Part shown: positions 747 to 33,390 of the stretch, piece by piece
How positions within the stretch are numbered: position 1 is the stretch's first letter
Layout of the letters: the number at the start of each line of letters is the position of its first letter
From: a virus
Length of the DNA stretch: 64,000 nt
Virus record (IMG/VR): IMGVR_UViG_3300037189_022865
Location: 1 to 64,000 of that record
Direction: 5' to 3' (one strand)
Program-made: the position numbers and the translations under genes
The notes under the pieces: generated by a model
Told to the model about the DNA's origin: nothing
Databases searched by the model: none
Seen by the model: only the letters and a program-made list of their open reading frames with translations

Positions 747-3167
747 CTATTTGGATGATTTTCTAGCTTTTATTTTAAGGTCTTTCTCTTTTAGGTCTGA
801 TTCTTTTTCAAATTTCTTTTCAGCTAAATCAAGTTCTCTCTCACGTAGATTTTGATCCGAAATAAATTTCTGTATCTCGAGTGGATCAGGAATACCGTTA
901 TTATCTATATCAATATCCTTTTGGAATTTAAATACTTCTATCTGAGCTAAACGTTCTTTATGTTCAAAGAGCCTGTCTTGCATCATTATATCAAACTGTT
1001 GTTGAGCTTGTTGCTGCTGTTGGGCTGCTTCTATTTGCTGCTGTTGAGATTGTTGTTCCCGCTTAAAGGTTTCTTCTTCAGACTGTCTGATAGCCGCTTT
1101 AAGTTCGGCAGAAGAATTCGCTTCGTAAAGAGTAATAAGATCAGAGAATGTAGCGCGATTTGTATTAAGTAGGCCATCAGATATACTTTTAAGAGCTGAG
1201 AACATTTCGTATTCTTTGCCAGAGTCTGTAAGGAAAACACCTAGGTCGCAATTAGAAACATCTTCTGGAGAAAGTTCAAGTGTAGAAAGAGACATATCAT
1301 CTAACACGTACTGCTTAATAATCGACTTACCTTTCCAAACGTGCTGAGCAACATGGATAAGAGCAGTTAATGCTTTTTCCCACATCTTGGCATGGCTTTG
1401 GAAGTATATCTCAGTAATAAGAGCTGACATTTGTATATTACTCTGAGCATTTGATACAGCTTCAGTTGGAGTAGTTTGTCCTTCTCTTTGTCTAGATACA
1501 CCGGCTACTTCAGAGATCTGGTTATCAAGAGCTGCAAGTATATTAATGTAGTTCATTATATACTGCATATTCGACATATCTGTTTCTGAAGCTATCTTAC
1601 CTCTTTGAGCTTGTCCTGGTTCATCCGCATTTGCAAGAGGATTGAATATATCAAGGTTCATTTCCTTAAGATAATAGAGTGTTTTCTCTATACCAATTTT
1701 TGGATCAACCATAGATACATCAAAGTGGAATACCTTACCTTGATCTTGAGCAATGAGCTTTTTAAGCTTATGCATTACTATAAAGTAAAGATACTGAAAA
1801 GGTTTCATTCTATCCATCAAGGAAACAGACTCAGCATTTGTAGCATTATAAACTATGCCATGATATCCTAAGGAAACATCATAAGGATCGTCCATAGATC
1901 TAAACTGAACTTCTTTAGGGCCAACCATAGTGTAAATATCGTGACCTATTTTAGTAGCGGTCCATACCTCTGGAATATAATCCCAATTAAGTTTATATAC
2001 GGAATCTTCTAATTTCCAAATGTAGTACTCAGTCTTTACACCATATCTACCACGAACTATTTCTTTGGTAAACTCAGTGGGGATTTCAAAGTCCTCAGAA
2101 ACAATAGTAGTTTCTTCTTCACCATACTCATTAAACATAGTAAGAAATCCTACTTTTCTTTGGGATACCCATTCAACGTGTGATACACGCACGTCCGTGT
2201 GCGAGCTTTTTCCATAAGATCCTTGGGTAGTTGTATAAGTATCGTGATAGACTGGATCATAAGGAAGATTACCATACTTGGCGTTTTGCTCCATAGAAAA
2301 TTCTCTAAGTGCATTTGTATCACCAAAAGCAGTATCTATCTTCTCAATATCTTCTTGAGATAAATACTTTCCATAACGATCTAGTACCTCTGCTTGCGTC
2401 ATAAATGTAGTATAACCAGCGTAAAGAGATTTTTGAATCCACTTTGTTTCTCCACTCTTATGGTAGAAAAATCCTAGTGGATTAATAACTTCAATATGTG
2501 GTTCATCTCCATTAGTACCTACATAAACTACTTCTTCTCCAGATATAAGGGCATGCTTAAAAGCATCGGTCTTAATATCTTTTATATCCATTTTACGATA
2601 AAGATACTGAAGAATATTTTGAGCAAGTATTTCTCTCCTTTCACGATAAGAATACCTCATATATTTATCAAGATCTTTTGGATTAATGATATGCTCTTGA
2701 TGAACTTCTAAGAGCTCTGGGGAATAAATGTCAGAGAGAGAAGAGATTGTTTGTTTTATTACAGAATCAATATAATTACGAAGCATTGCATCTCTTTGGG
2801 AGAGCTTTGAACGAACTCCTTCTGCGTTTACTAATATTGTCCTAAAGTTAAAGGGCCTTTTAGATTCATCAGAAAGAAGTATTTGTATTTTATTATAAGT
2901 CTTATTGTAGGGTTGTATAGCGTCTTTAAATTGACCTACATCAAGTCCTAATGGGTTACACTCTCTTTCAAAATCAAACTGGTTTAGCTGATTATTGTAA
3001 AGTTGGTAATTTGATAATTTTCTTTGGTAGGAAGAGTTATACTTATTCACAACTCCTTCATCTTGAGGAGAGTATGACAGTATAGAATCTACCACATCCT
3101 TTGCCCACTTAAAGTTACTAGAAGCTTTACGTGAATAAGGAAGGCGTTGTTTTGGGAAGTTGTACAT
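747..3167 (-). CDS. Portal protein (crAss-like)
   Basis: 806 aa, begins FPKQRLP..K, has a C-terminal Q-rich coil and DIDNNGIPD; directly downstream of TerL; no in-frame TGA. Confidence 0.85.
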   Translation of the reverse strand: MYNFPKQRLPYSRKASSNFKWAKDVVDSILSYSPQDEGVVNKYNSSYQRKLSNYQLYNNQLNQFDFERECNPLGLDVGQFKDAIQPYNKTYNKIQILLSDESKRPFNFRTILVNAEGVRSKLSQRDAMLRNYIDSVIKQTISSLSDIYSPELLEVHQEHIINPKDLDKYMRYSYRERREILAQNILQYLYRKMDIKDIKTDAFKHALISGEEVVYVGTNGDEPHIEVINPLGFFYHKSGETKWIQKSLYAGYTTFMTQAEVLDRYGKYLSQEDIEKIDTAFGDTNALREFSMEQNAKYGNLPYDPVYHDTYTTTQGSYGKSSHTDVRVSHVEWVSQRKVGFLTMFNEYGEEETTIVSEDFEIPTEFTKEIVRGRYGVKTEYYIWKLEDSVYKLNWDYIPEVWTATKIGHDIYTMVGPKEVQFRSMDDPYDVSLGYHGIVYNATNAESVSLMDRMKPFQYLYFIVMHKLKKLIAQDQGKVFHFDVSMVDPKIGIEKTLYYLKEMNLDIFNPLANADEPGQAQRGKIASETDMSNMQYIMNYINILAALDNQISEVAGVSRQREGQTTPTEAVSNAQSNIQMSALITEIYFQSHAKMWEKALTALIHVAQHVWKGKSIIKQYVLDDMSLSTLELSPEDVSNCDLGVFLTDSGKEYEMFSALKSISDGLLNTNRATFSDLITLYEANSSAELKAAIRQSEEETFKREQQSQQQQIEAAQQQQQAQQQFDIMMQDRLFEHKERLAQIEVFKFQKDIDIDNNGIPDPLEIQKFISDQNLRERELDLAEKKFEKESDLKEKDLKIKARKSSK

Positions 3168-5367
3168 TGAATAGTCTGGTGTTGTTTACAAATAACCTAT
3201 CAAAGTCTTTCTCAAATTGAGAAAGCTCCTTATCGGTTATGGATTTTTTGCGACTAAGATTGGATATTTCTTCTAGACCTAAAACACATCCTATTAACGA
3301 AGATACCCTATCAAAGTTGCCATCGAGGTTATAAGAGATTAATTCTTGTAATAATCCTATATCGGGTATTACATCTAAATTGCGTCTATTATCTCCTCTT
3401 TCTTCTAAGAGGAAAGAACGAACATATTGAAGTGCTTCTCATTTAACTTTATCGTTTGATAGGGGGTAACCATAAATAATCTGGGGCCCTGTATCATAAG
3501 AAGCTTTTTTATTAAAAATAGTAACTGGTTGTCTAGCCAAAAGATCTAGACGGCGTATTTTATCAAAATAATCTTTTACGTTACCTACGTTATTCTCAAA
3601 GTATATTTTAGCATTACCATAAAACAAGGAGAGTTTGTATAACGTCTCATTAACTTGATTTTTACCTAAGTAAGGTCTACCTATATATGTAGCAACTATT
3701 TCTGAATATCCAACAGTGGAAGGATACTTGTTAGTCTTCATAACATAGACGGCAGCTAAAGATCCACCAGTTGAAGTATCATCTTTATAAGGGTCACAAC
3801 CTATTATATAAGCTCCTTCTGGAACATGATCATCTACTAGTTTTGGGAATTCGTATATCATAACCGCTCCTTCTACATCATCTCCTTCGTAAGGAAATCT
3901 TGTTATAGCAGTTAGTTTAGTATTTATTTCATAACTAACTCCATTATAAACTTTAGCGGCGGGATCAAAAAACAGAGTCACTTTATTAGAGTAATCCTCC
4001 ATCTTTTGAGATTGCACTTCTGAAAGACGTCTTCTAAGTTCTGCTGTTGGGAATATATTAGCAGTCTTGGTTAAGAACATTTCTGAAGGAACTATTGGAC
4101 GATATTGAAGCTCTTTATTTAAAGCTTCGGAACCACCTGAATCTCCAGCTTTTTGTTTTCTAACCTGAAGAAGGGCTTTTTTAGCTGCCTCTTCATTTGT
4201 AACTCAGTTCTCATCTTTATACTCATTAAGAACTTGGTAAGCTGGTAGAAAGTATCCTATTTGACCCCTATGCTCCCATATATCTTCAAACGTTAAGATA
4301 TCATATCTGTTAGGTTCGTAAAACATTTCAGAAGCATCAATAGTTCCTTTCTCCATATCACCACCAGTACCAATCATCATAAGCATACCTGTTTTCCTAA
4401 GACCGTTACGAAGGTTATCCACCGTATTTGTATAAACCTGTTTTAAGTTGGAGAACATACCTATCTCTTCTAATACTAAAAGAAGAGGTCGAGTACCTTG
4501 AGCTGCAAATGGGTTAGCAGAAAAAGACCTATGCTTAATAGATGACTTAGATCCCGCAATTATCCAAGCTCCATTCTCACGTTTTTTATACTCAGCAACT
4601 ATCTCTTTATTAACATCCCAAGATCCCCTGAATCTTTTAGAAAAAGGAGCTGGGTAGGTCCTGTCAAAAGTAGATATCTTACCGGGAAGCCAATCAAATG
4701 CATCCCTTGTCTTTTTAAGTAGATCTGCTGATTTATCTGACTTTTCAGCACCAACTAATATCTCAGCTGGGGAGGGATACTTTATACTTTCTTCATTATA
4801 ATAAGTAGCTCCATCAAAAAGATAGTTGTGTGCTATAAGTCCCGATACCTGATAAGACTTACCAGATTCTCGAGATCCAAGAAGCATAAAATTCTGTAGA
4901 TTATTCTCAAACAGAGGAGCACCTAAGGGATAATCATAGGTTTGGAATAAAGCCTTTCGCGCGGGAATGTAAGTTTTACGAGAACCTGTGGAAGACATAG
5001 TATTTGGATAATACTTTAATAAGGTATCATCATCTATATCTGTTAAAAGTATTCTATGAGAGGAGTATTCATCATCGTCTTTAAAACCAGAGAATCCACG
5101 GGCTTCGGTGTAATAATTAAAAAAGTTATATTCTACATCCCTGAGTCAAGGTCTACCAAAAGACTTTACAGATGAGTGAATAGATTTATTTAGCCTTATT
5201 GTATGGAAGTTTATATAATAGTAAAGGGCTGGGGGAACAAATGTCCCGCCAGCCCAGTAACCTTCGATACAACGCCGTTTCTGTTCGCGTCAAAATGTTT
5301 TATAATCTATTGATAGAGGATGATACTCAGGGACTTCTTTTATTATAAAGTCTCTGTTATTGAACAT
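3127..5367 (-). CDS. terL: Terminase large subunit, 746 aa, with 4 in-frame TGA read as Trp
   Basis: Track ORFs 3439-4080 and 4204-4998 share a frame and are joined by TGA at 5290, 5146, 4204 and 3439. Motifs: YKTF*REQKRRCIEGYW, Walker A GSRESGKS, Walker B LVLEEIG, nuclease IIGCDPY, C-terminal GNFDRVS. Confidence 0.92.
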
Positions 5368-7191: not shown

Positions 7192-7329
7192 TTAGTTAAC
7201 TCTATAGAGCCAATTTGCAATATCTGCGTCGTGCACAGCGTCTTTTTGTGTAACCATATTCATTCTGTACTCAGAAAGAAGATAATTACCAAAGTCTATG
7301 AGTTCAGTAAGTGTAAATTTATTTTCCAT
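7192..7329 (-). CDS. Small hypothetical protein, 45 aa (not in ORF track)
   Basis: MENKFTLTELIDFGNYLLSEYR...VHDADIANW; start overlaps the previous stop (TAATG). Confidence 0.6.
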   Translation of the reverse strand: MENKFTLTELIDFGNYLLSEYRMNMVTQKDAVHDADIANWLYRVN

Positions 7330-7628
7330 TATATACTTGTGTCTAAGGTTGGTTTTGGTGGCGTATCATTTTCTATACTTATACCACCATCGTTATCAGG
7401 ATTGATCATTTTAAGTAGATTTTCTGCTTGTACTTTAAGATAATAAGTATTACCATCCGTAGTAGAGATAGCAGAATATCTTTTTAAGTCATCTGGAACG
7501 TCTGTGTCTTTTACAATCTTTCTAATAGTAACTATTTGAGACGTATTTATCCATATTGGTATTTCAAAAAAGGAATTCTCTTCTAAAGAATCCCCTTCAG
7601 CCATTAATAGTGAAGTTTTTATCCACAT
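7329..7628 (-). CDS. Hypothetical protein
   Basis: 99-aa ORF with A-rich leader, co-oriented with the operon. Confidence 0.6.
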   Translation of the reverse strand: MWIKTSLLMAEGDSLEENSFFEIPIWINTSQIVTIRKIVKDTDVPDDLKRYSAISTTDGNTYYLKVQAENLLKMINPDNDGGISIENDTPPKPTLDTSI

Positions 7629-7643
7629 AAAATTAAGTTTTAG

Positions 7644-7736
7644 CGAGGGCTGAGGGAATCGAACCCCCGCACGCCTTTTGGAAGGGCGTGTTCAGCGATT
7701 TTGAAGATCGGTTAGTACCCAGCTACTGTAGCCCCC
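7644..7736 (-). tRNA. tRNA with UCA anticodon (opal suppressor candidate), type II long variable arm
   Basis: Acceptor GGGGGCT/AGCCCTC plus G73; D stem AGTA/TACT; anticodon arm CGAT-CTTCAAA-ATCG (anticodon 7702-7704); variable stem CACGCC/GGCGTG; T arm GGGGG-TTCGATT-CCCTC; CCA not encoded. Confidence 0.88.
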
Positions 7737-7741
7737 GTAAA

Positions 7742-7839
7742 GCCGCTATGGAAGTTCCCTGAATCTTACGACTAGGGAACCGGGTCCATAAACGACTGTT
7801 ATCAGTTTTTCCCGCTGTAATTTAAATACTAGGGCGGGA
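7742..7839 (-). ncRNA. Structured RNA candidate between thyX and tRNA(UCA)
   Basis: Hairpin TCCCGC..GCGGGA and a long interrupted hairpin GTCGT-TATGGA-GTTCCCT-AGTC(GTAA)GATT-AGGGAAC-TCCATA-GCGGC. Confidence 0.4.
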
Positions 7840-7894
7840 CCCTGTATCCTTCTCTTTTCTGGCAAAAGTTAAAATGAAGGCTTCTATACCACGA

Positions 7895-8608
7895 CTACCC
7901 AATAAGTTCAGGTTTATCAAATCCCCATGCTTCTAATGTAGCTTTAAAAGGAGCGTTTTCTAAATTATAAACTATGGAGAGCATTTCTCTAGCAATTTCT
8001 CTTATCTCTTTTTGAGCGTGATCATCCATCCTTTGATTAATAAAATTATGAAATGACCGCATATTAAACATAACATCCGCTGTTATCTGCGAATTATAAG
8101 TCTTAAAAAATCTAGCTGTTTCTTTAGCTCTTTTTCTACCAAGAACTGGTGTAAGTTCTTTAACAGCTTCATGATAATAAACATTCCCAAGTTTTGTATA
8201 CTCCTCTAGTATAGACAGAAGATCTTTATGGAATCTCTTAGACTTAACACCTTTCCAATCTTCTGGTAAATAGTATTTATCTTCTTTAAGTTCTTTATAT
8301 CTAGCTGACTCAGCATTAATAGAGGATATTCTATGCTTTAATAAATGTATGTGTGAAGCAATATCCGTAGTAACTAGGAAATGAACAATTCCCTTCTCAA
8401 ACGGAGATCCATGTGGAACTGGATGTGCATCCCAAAGCTGTTTAATTAAAGCGGGAATACGTTCTTTCTTTTCTGGAGTTAAATCTCTAGACGTAGATGT
8501 CCATGCAGAAAGAGCTATTACTTCATCTGAACCATAGTAACCTATAAGTTCAACTTTATTTGTGGAGGCGGCGGGAGTCGAACCCGCGTCTTCAGTATTA
8601 CTTTTCAT
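7895..8608 (-). CDS. thyX: Flavin-dependent thymidylate synthase
   Basis: HGSPFE, HLLKHRISSINAESARY (RHRxxS..SxR-type motif), R...HAQKEIRE. Confidence 0.93.
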   Translation of the reverse strand: MKSNTEDAGSTPAASTNKVELIGYYGSDEVIALSAWTSTSRDLTPEKKERIPALIKQLWDAHPVPHGSPFEKGIVHFLVTTDIASHIHLLKHRISSINAESARYKELKEDKYYLPEDWKGVKSKRFHKDLLSILEEYTKLGNVYYHEAVKELTPVLGRKRAKETARFFKTYNSQITADVMFNMRSFHNFINQRMDDHAQKEIREIAREMLSIVYNLENAPFKATLEAWGFDKPELIG

Positions 8609-8808
8609 TAACCTTTAAGTGTGATTTAATTTAAGCGTAAACTAATTCTAAAATTTCTACCTCTTGAGAAACGTAGCTGGTAGAGTTCTCCGGCACTATA
8701 AGTGCATCTGCGTAAGAGTTGTCATTTATTGTTATCTACTTAAGGCGTAGACGACCTTCATCACAGTTAATGTAAGCACTATATACCAAATCAATACCAG
8801 GCGCCCCC
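8563..8808 (-). ncRNA. ssrA: tmRNA (transfer-messenger RNA)
   Basis: 5' GGGGGCG pairs with 3' CGCCTCC-A giving G3:U70 Ala identity; T arm GCGGG-TTCGACT-CCCGC; tag ORF 8723-8631 after ATAAAT reads DNSYADALIVPENSTSYVSQEVEILELVYA*. Confidence 0.88.
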
Positions 8809-8830
8809 ATAATAGTGGTGAAGAACACCA

Positions 8831-9328
8831 CTAAATTTCTCCTTTTTCAGAAGCAGATTCCTCTAAATCTCCATGAGTTTTAGTTTGACGTTCTTTAGCT
8901 AACCGCTCTAAAATAGATTCATACTGATCCCATAATTTGGGAGTATTTGCAACCATCTTATCTTTAGCTTCAAAGGTATCTAAAGAATAAGGTATAGAGG
9001 AAATAAACTCATCTCTTTCATGTAGCGTCTTTTCCCATCTCATAAGAGCCCTTTCTACTTTAGTAAGTAGATTATCTTCTACAAAAGAAAGAAGATCAGA
9101 GTAGGACTCCCATGAGAAGGAAGGATCAGAGATAAGGTAATCCTTATAAATAAGTTCTTGGCGTTCTTTAGGGGAAAGCTCAAAGAACTTAGAATCAGGG
9201 TGCGCGTATAAAAATATTGCTCATAAATGTTCAGAGGGTATTTCTAAAAAATCTTTTAATAGAACTGACAACTCAGGATTAGTAGAGAAAAAATCCTTAT
9301 GTATATCAAAACTATTTAGGAGCGTCAT
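8831..9328 (-). CDS. Hypothetical protein, 165 aa, 1 in-frame TGA (possible small terminase)
   Basis: ATG 9328; TGA at 9221-9223 in SEHL*AIFLYAHPDSKF; continues in frame into track ORF 8831-9043. TerS identity is positional inference only. Confidence 0.7.
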
Positions 9329-16405: not shown

Positions 16406-16534
16406 AATAAGGTTTAATAGTGAGAAGGAAGAATCTTCCCAAAAGAGGGAGGGTTCTTTTTTTAAGTTAAGAGGTTCAAAGCCCTCATAAAGAGTGATGA
16501 CGTAACAACGTAAACTCGCTTAACTATAAAAAAC

Positions 16535-17268: not shown

Positions 17269-17352
17269 CCCGGTACACAGGTGGTTTGTAATGTAACTCA
17301 GTGTTCGCACGCTTTACAAAACAAATTGTGGGTTCGACTCCCATTACCGGGG
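17269..17352 (+). ncRNA. tRNA-like RNA lacking a canonical anticodon arm
   Basis: Acceptor CCCGGTA/TACCGGG plus G; T arm GTGGG-TTCGACT-CCCAT; centre forms TTTGTAA/TTACAAA stem enclosing GTG-TTCG-CAC. Confidence 0.6.
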
Positions 17353-17353
17353 C

Positions 17354-17623
17354 ATGAAAGCATTAGATAGGTTTACCGCCTTCATGATGTTCGCAATTGG
17401 TATAGCGGGCATTGCTCTTATAATAAACTCTAGTCCCAGAAAAACTAATACAACTTTAATCCCTGACACAATAATTTCTGTCACTGATTATTATGTACTC
17501 GATAGTGAGTATATATATCTTTGTCAGAAAGATTCAATCATTTACAAAATCAAAAAAGATGAGAACAATCTTCTTTATCTTGATGGGGTTTTTCCCCTTT
17601 ATCCTACTGGCTCAGTCCGTTGA
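17354..17623 (+). CDS. Hypothetical membrane-anchored protein
   Basis: N-terminal TM helix. Confidence 0.55.
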   Translation: MKALDRFTAFMMFAIGIAGIALIINSSPRKTNTTLIPDTIISVTDYYVLDSEYIYLCQKDSIIYKIKKDENNLLYLDGVFPLYPTGSVR

Positions 17624-31325: not shown

Positions 31326-31571
31326 ATGGAAGCTATCTTTTTTGTCCTCTTATCAACGATCGCAGGTTCGTTGTTTAAGCACTATCTGGAGCCCGTGGTG
31401 TTAAACAAAGCGGCTCATCTTTTCCCTCAATCTAATATCTTTAACACAAAACCAGAAACAAAAGTAGAACCTACGGAGTTTAATAACGTAAGGTTTAAGC
31501 GCACTATCAATGGATATACAACAATCTATGTTTCGAGTCCAACACGGACAGATACAACCTACGTCAGGTAA
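31326..31571 (+). CDS. Hypothetical membrane protein
   Basis: N-terminal hydrophobic segment. Confidence 0.5.
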   Translation: MEAIFFVLLSTIAGSLFKHYLEPVVLNKAAHLFPQSNIFNTKPETKVEPTEFNNVRFKRTINGYTTIYVSSPTRTDTTYVR

Positions 31572-33390
31572 AGAACTCACCAAAGAGATCAAGTCCTGAG
31601 ACATAATAGCTTTAGATACAGAGGTAACTGGAGATTTTGATAATATCTTTGATAGAAGAATTGTCATGCTGCAGTTTGGTAACAAAGAAGTTCAGTACAT
31701 TATAGACACAAGGAAAGCGGACCCTACTAAGCTCCTCAAAGAATTATCCAAGAAAAAGATCATAGGTCACAACATTAAGTTCGACTACCAAGTTATAAAG
31801 ACTAACTATGGGATTGAGCTTGAAGATCTATTCGATACCATGCTTGCAGCACAAATACTGGAGTGTGGGATGGATGAGGAGAAGGGACATTTTACCCTAG
31901 AGCAAACCGCTAGACGCTACACAGGGTATCACTACTACTCCAATCAAGGTAACTTATTTATTCCAGCAGTTACCAAAAAGATAAGGAGTTCTTTTTCTAG
32001 TATAGGAGATAAACCGTTTGAGTTAGAGCAGCTCTATTATGGAGCTCTTGACGTTTCGGTTGCATATCTCTTGTATGAGAAACAGAAGATTCAGCTTGAG
32101 AAAAATGAGCTTGAGTCAACAGCAGAGCTAGAGTTCAACTTCGTGAAAGTTCTTGCTGATATGGAATTGAGTGGTGTATATCTCAACCAAAAACAGTGGT
32201 TAGAGAATTATCGCAACACACTACAACAAACCGAAGAATTGCGAAAGAAACTGGAGGAGTATCAACAACTAAACTGAAACTCCCACAAGCAGGTTTTACC
32301 TGTACTCAAAGAGCTTGGTGTTGACGTGTCGATTATAGACAAGAAAACAGGTGAGATAAAGGAGTCTGTATCTCGCGAAGTCTTAAAGAAGCAAACAGCT
32401 AAGGCTGGTATTCTGAAGACTTATCTTGACTATAAGCTTTCCCAAAAGGAATCATCTACCTATGGTGAAAAGTTTTTAAGGCACGTCAACCCAACTTCTC
32501 AAAGAGTTCACTCTTCTTATATGCAAATTATGAGAACTGGAAGAACTTCTTCTACTTCCCCTAATTGTCAATCTATTAAGAGGGGATCTATATACCGATC
32601 AGCATTTCAAGCTGAAGAAGGTAATACCTTTGTAGGTGCAGACTTCTCTAATATAGAAGCAAGGATACTCGCTGATAAGTCTAATGACGAAAACTTTATT
32701 AACATCTTTATAAACAATGGTGATTACCATTTAGAAACTGCTAAGCTAGCTTTTGATAATCCTAATCTAACCAAAGGATCTGAAGAAAGACAGTTAGCAA
32801 AGACTATTAACTTCGCAATTGCTTTTGGTGCTGGAGCTAAGAAAGTATCAGAAGGTGCTGGAGTTACTTTACAGAAAGGAAAAGAACTATTAAATAAAGT
32901 TTATACTGCTTTCCCAAAACTTAGTCCTTACTTTATAGAGATGGGTAATCTCACAAGGGAAAGAGGATATGTTGTGTGTAATGAAGTATCAAAAAGAAGA
33001 AGTTATATACCGTTTTATAATGAATACTTAGAAGCTAAGAAACATTATAACTACTTTAAAGCAATGGGTTGGGATCCTCATCCTACTATTGCATCAGCAT
33101 ATAAAACTTGGGATTCTAAAATACAAAGATGGTCACAAAACTTGCCTGTCCAAGCTACCGCTGCTGACATAGCAAAAGCCACCTGTATAGAACTCAGAGA
33201 GAAGTCTAAAAAAATTCCATTCAATCTCGTTTTATTCGTACATGACGAAGTTGTAGTAGAGTGCGAAAAAGAACGCGCAAACACTATATCTAAGCTTATT
33301 GAAAAAACAGGATTAGAATGCTCGAAAAAATTCCTGAATCATTTAACAGTCCCTGCAGAAGCACACGTATCTTCGCAGTGGGAAAAGTAA
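31510..33390 (+). CDS. polA: Family A DNA polymerase with 3'-5' exonuclease, 2 in-frame TGA
   Basis: *DIIALDTEVTG (ExoI, TGA 31597), HNIKFD, LN*NSHKQV (TGA 32275), TGRTSS, DFSNIE, KTINF, VHDE. Confidence 0.93.

Follow-up and report, generated by a model that had tools for sequence, protein, structure and literature searches.

Phages that decode TGA as tryptophan (Trp), known as code 4 phages, have been described as carrying a suppressor transfer RNA (tRNA) of their own, tRNA(UCA) (Borges et al., 10.1101/2021.08.26.457843; Seki et al., 10.1101/2025.10.30.685624); how host synthetases come to accept such phage suppressors is a question left open in the text of Borges et al. (10.1101/2021.08.26.457843) cited here. 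In this paper we describe a tRNA(UCA) gene on the minus strand of a 64,000-nucleotide stretch of viral DNA (positions 1 to 64,000 of IMG/VR record IMGVR_UViG_3300037189_022865; hereafter the window). This tRNA has five arms, and the loop of the arm in the variable-arm position displays CCA, the anticodon of tRNA-Trp. Like the code 4 phages, the phage in question uses in-frame TGA at sites of Trp and brings a tRNA(UCA) of its own; it has no tryptophanyl-tRNA synthetase (TrpRS), and its host presumably has the standard code. The second anticodon-like arm sets its tRNA apart from the code 4 suppressors as the cited texts describe them, and the phage itself differs in its freshwater origin, its crAss-like relationship to Cellulophaga phage phi14:2, and its use of TGA, which is low at ∼17% and is not confined to late genes.

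Stop-reading tRNAs of the Trp type are also known from Escherichia coli, as opal and amber suppressors of tRNA-Trp that keep the discriminator base G73 (PMC9976931 sections 17 and 19; PMC2965240). According to the sections cited, these have a normal variable loop of 4–5 nucleotides (nt) and the amber form is mischarged with glutamine (Gln); the phage tRNA differs from them by an added arm that redisplays the lost CCA. The UCA anticodon, G73, a long extra arm, an occurrence in phages and metagenomes, and the ARAGORN label SeC are features shared with selenocysteine tRNA (tRNA-Sec) and the allo-tRNAs, or selC* (Mukai et al., PMC5389517). In the parts of that account drawn on here, however, tRNA-Sec and the allo-tRNAs have 8/5, 8/4 or 9/3 acceptor/T-stem branches, 6-bp D stems and charging by SerRS or CysRS, whereas the phage tRNA has a 7/5 branch, a 4-bp D stem, a CCA loop and codons that correspond to Trp. 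Finally, an engineered system resembles the phage tRNA in that a hairpin in the variable position mimics the anticodon arm for the anticodon-binding domain of a synthetase, while the true anticodon reads a stop codon (PMC7590224). As reported in the section cited, that system is man-made and HisRS-based, depends on fusing a further anticodon-binding domain to the enzyme and achieves a modest effect; the phage tRNA occurs in nature, is specific to Trp and apparently relies on a host enzyme that is unmodified. A search of the full-text literature found no natural anticodon-like second arm in a suppressor tRNA, although the supplementary tRNA lists of two preprints, which lay outside the search, may hold members.

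The tRNA and its two anticodon-like arms occupy the following positions of the window:

Positions 7644..7736, minus strand (running from 7736 to 7644): five-arm tRNA(UCA), identified by ARAGORN, by the family covariance model R1 and by compensatory changes relative to sister locus L031.
Positions 7694..7712, minus strand: decoding anticodon arm, with an outer A-U pair, a C.C mismatch, 4 bp and the loop CUUCAAA; the anticodon UCA lies at 7702–7704.
Positions 7670..7690, minus strand: second, pseudo-anticodon arm in the variable-arm position, with the 6-bp stem CACGCC/GGCGUG and the 9-nt loop C-UUCCAAA-A.

ARAGORN calls a single tRNA in the window, at 7643–7736 on the minus strand with the anticodon tca. 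Counted to the discriminator G73 (window position 7644) the tRNA is 93 nt long, and the letters downstream of G73 are CUA, so that the 3′-terminal CCA is not encoded. The acceptor stem has 7 bp, among them G1-C72, G2.U71, G3-C70, G4-C69 and G5-C68; it is followed by A8 and C9 and by a D arm with a 4-bp stem (AGUA/UACU) and a 6-nt loop. Three unpaired bases separate the decoding anticodon arm from the second arm, and a single unpaired C separates the latter from the 5-bp T stem. The original prediction, which gave no strand, had listed the UCA anticodon, the 7/5 stems, G73, a long arm, a 4-bp anticodon stem with a C mismatch and no encoded CCA, and all of these are present in the sequence.

The window tRNA and its sister in L031 differ at 17 positions, of which 16 make up eight compensatory pair changes (three in the D stem, one in the anticodon stem, three in the second arm and one in the T stem) and the remaining one lies in the D loop; no pair is broken. 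In the anticodon stem, G28-C40 becomes A-U in L031 and the C.C mismatch is retained. The anticodon loop, the 9-nt second-arm loop and the T loop are unchanged. The tRNA also scores 62.4 bits (E 4e-13) against R1, a model whose seed alignment includes the window sequence. Because 16 of the 17 differences are compensatory and the model is matched, the five-arm fold is more than a product of chance, and tRNA(UCA) is a real five-arm tRNA gene. At the acceptor end, strains L002, L003 and L006 have G1.U72 in place of the G1-C72 of the window. An 8-bp acceptor stem extended by C-1:G73 was also tried; in the window, base -1 is a C able to pair with G73, but the extension was dropped as this base is A in the same-type sister L031 (it is U in L058, L134, L008 and L036).

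A scan of positions 7200–9000 for promoters and terminators found no more sites than in shuffled sequences. In a freshwater metatranscriptome (run X20), contigs of the phage cover GroEL, positions 7295–7645 and a transfer-messenger RNA (tmRNA), and none spans 7672–8506; the library was a standard RNA library, which makes this uninformative on expression of the tRNA. Two DNA contigs from two runs and two studies (X2 record 9 and X9 record 26) carry ∼705 extra bases at window positions 7700–7703, that is, at tRNA positions 34–37 inside the UCA loop, and this looks like an intron-type insertion allele of sibling strains. Searches for the allele covered the gathered loci, IMG/VR with the 5′ half of the tRNA, which gave four stretches, all lacking the insertion, and a metagenome scan with the 3′ half, which gave one stretch, an allele already known.

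The feature that distinguishes this tRNA is the loop of its second arm. A normal phage tRNA-Trp(CCA) (L288:12722-12798) has exactly the sequence UUCCAAA as its anticodon loop, and in the second arm this sequence is in register: a U33-like U is followed by CCA, at window positions 7679–7681, and then by two A residues. Three of the six stem pairs beneath it are changed on both sides in L031. A loop of this kind was met in relatives that were reached through GroEL and terminase, with no tRNA pattern, and in which the position upstream of GroEL is likewise taken by a tRNA(UCA). Four distinct long-arm tRNA(UCA) occur among these relatives (the window type, L031/L034, L032/L064 and L058), with stems unrelated in sequence (CACGCC/GGCGUG, CGAUCC/GGAUCG, CUGGU/ACCAG and CACAG/CUGUG), and all four have an N-U-CCA-A-A loop. 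Judged by its sequence, the arm in the variable-arm position is a copy of the anticodon stem-loop seen in tRNA-Trp(CCA) and not a Ser/Sec-type extra arm. The very long variable arm that had been predicted, with its CACGCC/GGCGUG stem, was correctly seen; that its loop resembles an anticodon loop and carries CCA had gone unnoticed, and the Ser/Sec-type body ascribed to the tRNA is not supported.

This arrangement extends well beyond the nearest relatives. Scanning IMG/VR with the motif CTTCAAA ... TCCAAA ... GTTCGANTC returned 68 stretches, 62 of them within ARAGORN tRNA calls, and 52 distinct sequences, many on contigs of 60–230 kb. Of these 52 family members, 50 place U-CCA in the anticodon register above a stem of 4 bp or longer, and none does so in registers shifted by 1 or 2 nt. 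The second-arm stems are of 45 distinct kinds, and G73, the bacterial Trp discriminator, is present in every member although no search pattern required it. A second IMG/VR scan was blind to the content of the variable arm and fixed the anticodon and T arms (GGTCTTCAAAACC, a gap of 18–45 nt, GGGTTCGANTCC). Among the 55 distinct long-arm stretches that came out, U-CCA lies in a hairpin loop in 37 and the rest are mainly true 8/5 tRNA-Sec; one arm with the loop CCAG is of the Sec type and is not among the 37. In a covariance-model alignment of 71 rows, all five second-arm pairs change on both sides with 91.3% of cells paired, and the whole structure is 95.7% paired, compared with 65.3% in shuffles and 37–48% with slid partners, figures that lean towards structure as the alignment was fitted to the model and its rows are related. 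The first pair is A1-U72 in 46 of the 71 rows.

Genome contigs scanned with the family pattern gave 96 stretches, 45 of which are not tRNAs (about the chance expectation, by our own estimate) and 51 of which are tRNA(UCA). By reading of the sequences, 11 of the latter are of the five-arm type and 40 are ordinary tRNA-Sec; the 11 come from gut metagenome-assembled genomes and isolates, which may hold prophages or mis-binned phage contigs. One further relative, whose terminase has TGA at Trp sites, contains a tRNA(UCA)-like sequence of 138 nt (L045:5197-5334) in which the anticodon arm is followed by a long insert.

The codons that such a tRNA would read are found in several well-supported genes, two of which can serve as clients:

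Positions 3127..5367, minus strand: terminase large subunit gene, with in-frame TGA at 5290–5292, 5146–5148, 4204–4206 and 3439–3441.
Positions 31510..33390, plus strand: family A DNA polymerase gene, with in-frame TGA at 31597–31599 and 32275–32277.

The match to PHROG 6681 covers terminase residues 10–720 unbroken (E 1.6e-100), across in-frame TGA codons. In the polymerase, Pfam DNA_pol_A spans residues 232–624 and thus codon 256, a TGA codon where relatives G001, G002 and G003 have W; the Pfam scores obtained with TGA taken as W, S, G or C lie less than 3 bits apart and do not discriminate between them. To assign a meaning to TGA more generally, long open reading frames (ORFs) were translated with X at TGA and compared with G001, G002 and G003 as whole genomes and with phi14:2, keeping the best-scoring frame at each place. 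The resulting 37 sites and 101 site-by-relative cells hold W 28 times, TGA 18, Y 15, G 6, K 5, F 5, Q 4, S 2 and C 0, with the others in single figures. In a likelihood test based on substitution counts from the same alignments, W fits best and Y comes second, 60.6 log-likelihood units worse; Ser is not among the eight best-fitting residues listed.

Individual terminase sites were compared in a larger set of relatives, in counts where some contigs appear under two locus ids: all 39 of the 39 loci have W or TGA at site 26, and 40 of 48 have W at site 643; site 74 is variable among relatives and codon 388 (the TGA at 4204–4206) is G in 37 of 47. At this last codon, strain L005 (94–98% identical) has TGG, so that Trp seems to be tolerated in this lineage where Gly is conserved. 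Near-identical strains keep TGA in 88 of 89 cells and TGG in 338 of 339, the two swaps being both in L005: TGA to TGG at terminase codon 388, and TGG to TGA at portal codon 611. Homologue-covered spans contain 37 TGA and 177 TGG codons, so that TGA makes up 17% of both together; the portal, GroEL and probable capsid genes have no in-frame TGA. On these alignments, in-frame TGA is a sense codon standing for Trp. The impression, recorded in the original prediction, that TGA codons look like Trp is thereby borne out, with W at the head of the 101 cells, TGA and TGG exchanged between strains, and terminase sites 26 and 643 in agreement.

One TGA of the window, at 21004–21006, lies at the end of a glucosaminidase (endolysin-like) gene, exactly where the gene ends in relatives; the G002 homologue stops two codons later, and G001 has two separate genes in different frames at this locus. 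The next gene encodes a MoxR-like ATPase, starting with ATG at 21046 in the same frame, and suppression would fuse the two proteins.

These results bear directly on a first alternative, that the tRNA is of the Ser/Sec type, is charged by SerRS through its long arm, and gives UGA the meaning Ser, or Sec after conversion. The long variable arm, with its 6-bp stem, and G73 are tRNA-Ser-type features that speak for this alternative. At the curated Rfam thresholds nothing matches over the tRNA(UCA), but at loose thresholds the best model is tRNA-Sec (RF01852). The identity of the window tRNA to some bacterial tRNA-Sec is moreover 70–76%, rising to 80% in its 3′ half (with Caulobacteraceae tRNA-Sec), compared with a mean identity of 67% to the five-arm family. 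Twelve letters of its extra arm match a Caulobacteraceae tRNA-Sec and would allow the arm to derive from a tRNA-Sec arm, although the stem in L031 is different. Raw similarity thus fails to separate the classes, and the argument therefore rests on structure and on codon meaning.

On both of these counts the Ser/Sec alternative fares poorly. The RF01852 score of 38.9 bits is under the gathering score of 47, whereas true tRNA-Sec in L209 and L196 reach 81 and 74.6 bits, and the Rfam alignment flags the D-stem pairs of the window tRNA as non-standard. True tRNA-Sec that our scans met, whether in phage contigs or in bacterial genomes, combine an 8-bp acceptor and a 6-bp D stem with an extra stem of 7–9 bp and a small loop; by comparison, the window tRNA is 7/5 and not 8/5, and its D stem has 4 bp with a 6-nt loop and not 6 bp with a 4-nt loop. 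The original prediction had already set it apart from bacterial tRNA-Sec on its branch and D stem, and rightly so. L196, L209 and ∼38 other genome-contig loci have an ordinary tRNA-Sec with UCCAAAAGG in the extra arm; there the CC is paired to GG (7-bp stem, CAAAA loop), whereas the window tRNA keeps its CC in the loop. As regards codon meaning, S accounts for 2 and C for none of the 101 cells, against 66 for W, TGA, Y and F taken together, and TGA and TGG swap between strains. The four TGA codons in terminase alone are far above selenoprotein numbers. No SelA was found on the contig (SelB and selenocysteine insertion sequence elements were not searched for). We therefore regard a Ser/Sec-type tRNA as very improbable. 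The option that TGA is read as Ser or Sec, the leading idea of the original prediction, which had been left standing beside that of a new class of long-armed Trp acceptor, is accordingly given up; the latter is favoured by the Trp meaning of TGA, the CCA second arm and G73.

A parallel that involves a different stop codon is found in phage G006, a 146-kb TAG-recoded phage with 22 tRNAs. Its normal tRNA-Trp(CCA) is followed, nine bases on, by a tRNA(CUA) that also bears the CCA second arm (L289:7800-7892; G006:10262-10354). Eight TAG-rich ORFs of at least 441 residues contain TGG at 41 of 8,744 codons, compared with 103 of 7,947 in 12 TAG-free ORFs; TAG and TGG together come to 144 of 8,744. 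TGG is thus depleted in the TAG-rich genes, whose Trp content becomes normal once TAG is counted as Trp. An SH3_3 domain match is seen with TAG taken as W only. When the G006 ORFs were compared with the gathered loci by tblastn, 58 cells at TAG sites held stop 23 times, N 6, I 6, Y 4, W 4 and Q 0, a thin sample in which off-frame ORFs are included, and a search for relatives with a TAG-rich 907-residue G006 protein found the same contig only. The reading of TAG as Trp in G006 is supported mainly by composition and is not proven. It has a bearing on the second arm: a plain tRNA-Trp with the anticodon CUA was charged with Gln in E. coli, as reported in the section cited (PMC9976931 section 17), so that Trp reading in G006 would point to the second arm.

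How, then, might the window tRNA be charged? Bacterial TrpRS recognises G73, the first acceptor pairs and the anticodon CCA, according to the parts of two sources cited here (PMC9976931 section 19; PMC2965240). In the TrpRS dimer, as described in the cited part of a study of the human enzyme structure, one subunit holds the acceptor end, and the anticodon loop is held by the helical domain of its partner (PMC1538984). Compared with a Trp acceptor, the window tRNA has G73 and codons that correspond to Trp, with CCA in the second arm, UCA in the decoding loop, and G1-C72 as the first pair in place of A1-U72. We favour, with moderate confidence, the reading that it is a phage UGA-to-Trp suppressor of five-arm build, in which the second arm gives host TrpRS its CCA identity element. 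The UCA anticodon would read UGA codons scattered through phage genes, and the tRNA would deliver Trp there. Since the phage encodes no TrpRS on the contig, the host enzyme would have to do the charging. The decoding anticodon has given up C34, and the second loop would still show CCA to TrpRS, leaving the real anticodon free for UGA on the ribosome. In the engineered system a pseudo-anticodon placed in the variable arm improved charging, modestly, in the section cited (PMC7590224 section 2.6), and we count this precedent in favour of the second arm as a handle.

Distinctly less probable, in our view, is a UGA-to-Trp suppressor in which the second arm has a role apart from recognition by TrpRS. 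The arm might be a structural or orientation element that repels SerRS and other enzymes, a site for enzymes that modify anticodon loops, a decoy for a host nuclease or for a regulator sensing tRNA-Trp, or a second decoding head for UGG. Sister phages lend weight to such roles. Ordinary short-arm, Trp-like tRNA(UCA) occur at the syntenic place in G002/L008, L036 and G001, and these sisters use TGA to a comparable degree: at the TGG positions of the window, TGA takes up 26 of 117 W-or-stop cells in G001 and 8 of 76 in G002, rough figures that include all frames. With short-arm suppressors at work in TGA-using sisters, the second arm is not indispensable. In the docking of Shen et al. (PMC1538984), as far as the cited part goes, bacterial TrpRS reads mainly C35 and C34 poorly, so that it may tolerate U34, and UCA, unaided. 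At position 32 of the second loop, 28 of the 52 family members have G, unusual for a loop seated on the ribosome and acceptable to a protein reader. Against a role unrelated to TrpRS, it is exactly the Trp anticodon that has been kept in the anticodon register, together with an invariant G73, and the same CCA arm sits on a CUA tRNA in a phage with Trp-like TAG, which ties the arm to the amino acid and not to the codon. We know of no Trp-specific anticodon nuclease or sensor, which counts against a decoy or sensor role.

Besides the short-arm sisters, the docking result and the resemblance to tRNA-Sec, several further points weigh against a second arm that acts as a TrpRS handle in a Trp-inserting suppressor. 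TrpRS would have to reach an arm placed in the variable position. Trp was obtained from 13 of 13 phage tRNA(UCA) tested in E. coli extract, long-armed ones not being specified in the text cited (Seki et al., 10.1101/2025.10.30.685624). Most of the loop statistics come from sets selected for TCCAAA, those free of this selection being the terminase-reached relatives and the blind scan. The window tRNA departs from the family norm in its G1-C72 pair in place of A1-U72, in a mismatch-closed loop that is effectively 9 nt, and in a 1-nt 3′ linker, and its R1 score of 62.4 bits is near the bottom of the long-arm range (58.3–107.2). Finally, at least one TGA, that at 21004–21006, is probably still a working stop.

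The short-arm tRNA(UCA) of G001 (L142:16380-16455, minus strand; L035:3397-3472) is an observation in its own right. It is 76 nt long with an odd T arm, and is missed by ARAGORN and found by the covariance model at 37.5 bits; misses of this kind may help to explain the undetected suppressors of many recoded phages.

It could also be supposed that UGA is read by the host tRNA-Trp(CCA) or another host factor, the phage RNA being, for example, a tRNA-like regulator or decoy and not a decoder. Expression and aminoacylation of the phage tRNA do rest on inference, which leaves room for this view, but its anticodon loop CUUCAAA is perfect for UCA, and tRNA(UCA) co-occurs with in-frame TGA in G001, G002, L031, L032 and L058. 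The four TGA codons of the essential terminase gene, in addition, would demand efficient decoding. We consider this explanation very improbable. A second suppressor outside the window had been another option of the original prediction; ARAGORN run on the whole contig of 90,596 bp finds the tRNA(UCA) as the sole tRNA, together with a tmRNA, and this option falls away.

The contig itself belongs to a crAss-like phage (Crassvirales) with a CheckV completeness of 92%; its terminase shares 35% identity with the one in Cellulophaga phage phi14:2 (Crassvirales). Its genes include those for a portal protein, GroEL, ThyX and the family A polymerase, as well as giant polymerase-like ORFs, and a search of the contig found no TrpRS/TyrRS-type domain, SerRS-class core, SelA or release-factor domain. 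Twenty sequencing runs, spread over 11 studies and for the most part bearing freshwater labels, contain near-identical DNA; studies P1, P2 and P5 have the phage at depth.

Other structured RNAs accompany the tRNA in the window. The phage tmRNA lies at 8562–8808 on the minus strand (Rfam, 62.9 bits) and has a 30-residue tag; in RNA run X20, the short contigs that lie on it have letters of the sequencing adapter at 8561, 8665 and 8800, which is what a small discrete RNA should give. A type-P3 twister ribozyme is found at 16463–16526 on the plus strand (48.1 bits, cut-off 39.9). A tRNA-like element at 17269–17354, also on the plus strand, has a 7-bp acceptor stem, a good T arm and an odd middle; it scores 20.7 bits with the family model and is not called by ARAGORN.

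If the second arm does act as proposed, it would directly answer how hosts charge the suppressors of recoded phages. It would add a fifth-arm class to natural tRNA architecture, with identity and decoding physically separable in nature, and would offer code engineers a template where until now, as far as the cited section reports, there has been a weakly working artificial design only (PMC7590224). The window extends the five-arm design to freshwater crAss-like phages, beyond gut phages, in a divergent version with G1-C72, no encoded CCA and a mismatch-closed loop, and its clade provides a natural comparison in which long-arm or plain short-arm suppressors occupy the same genomic place. More tentatively, at somewhat less than even chances, phages may have evolved a modular tRNA in which a detachable pseudo-anticodon arm sets the amino acid and the real anticodon sets the codon, with the Trp handle serving readers of UGA and, in G006, of UAG. 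Were this so, it would represent a natural and general device for rewiring the genetic code during infection, and a design rule for suppressors charged by unmodified host synthetases.

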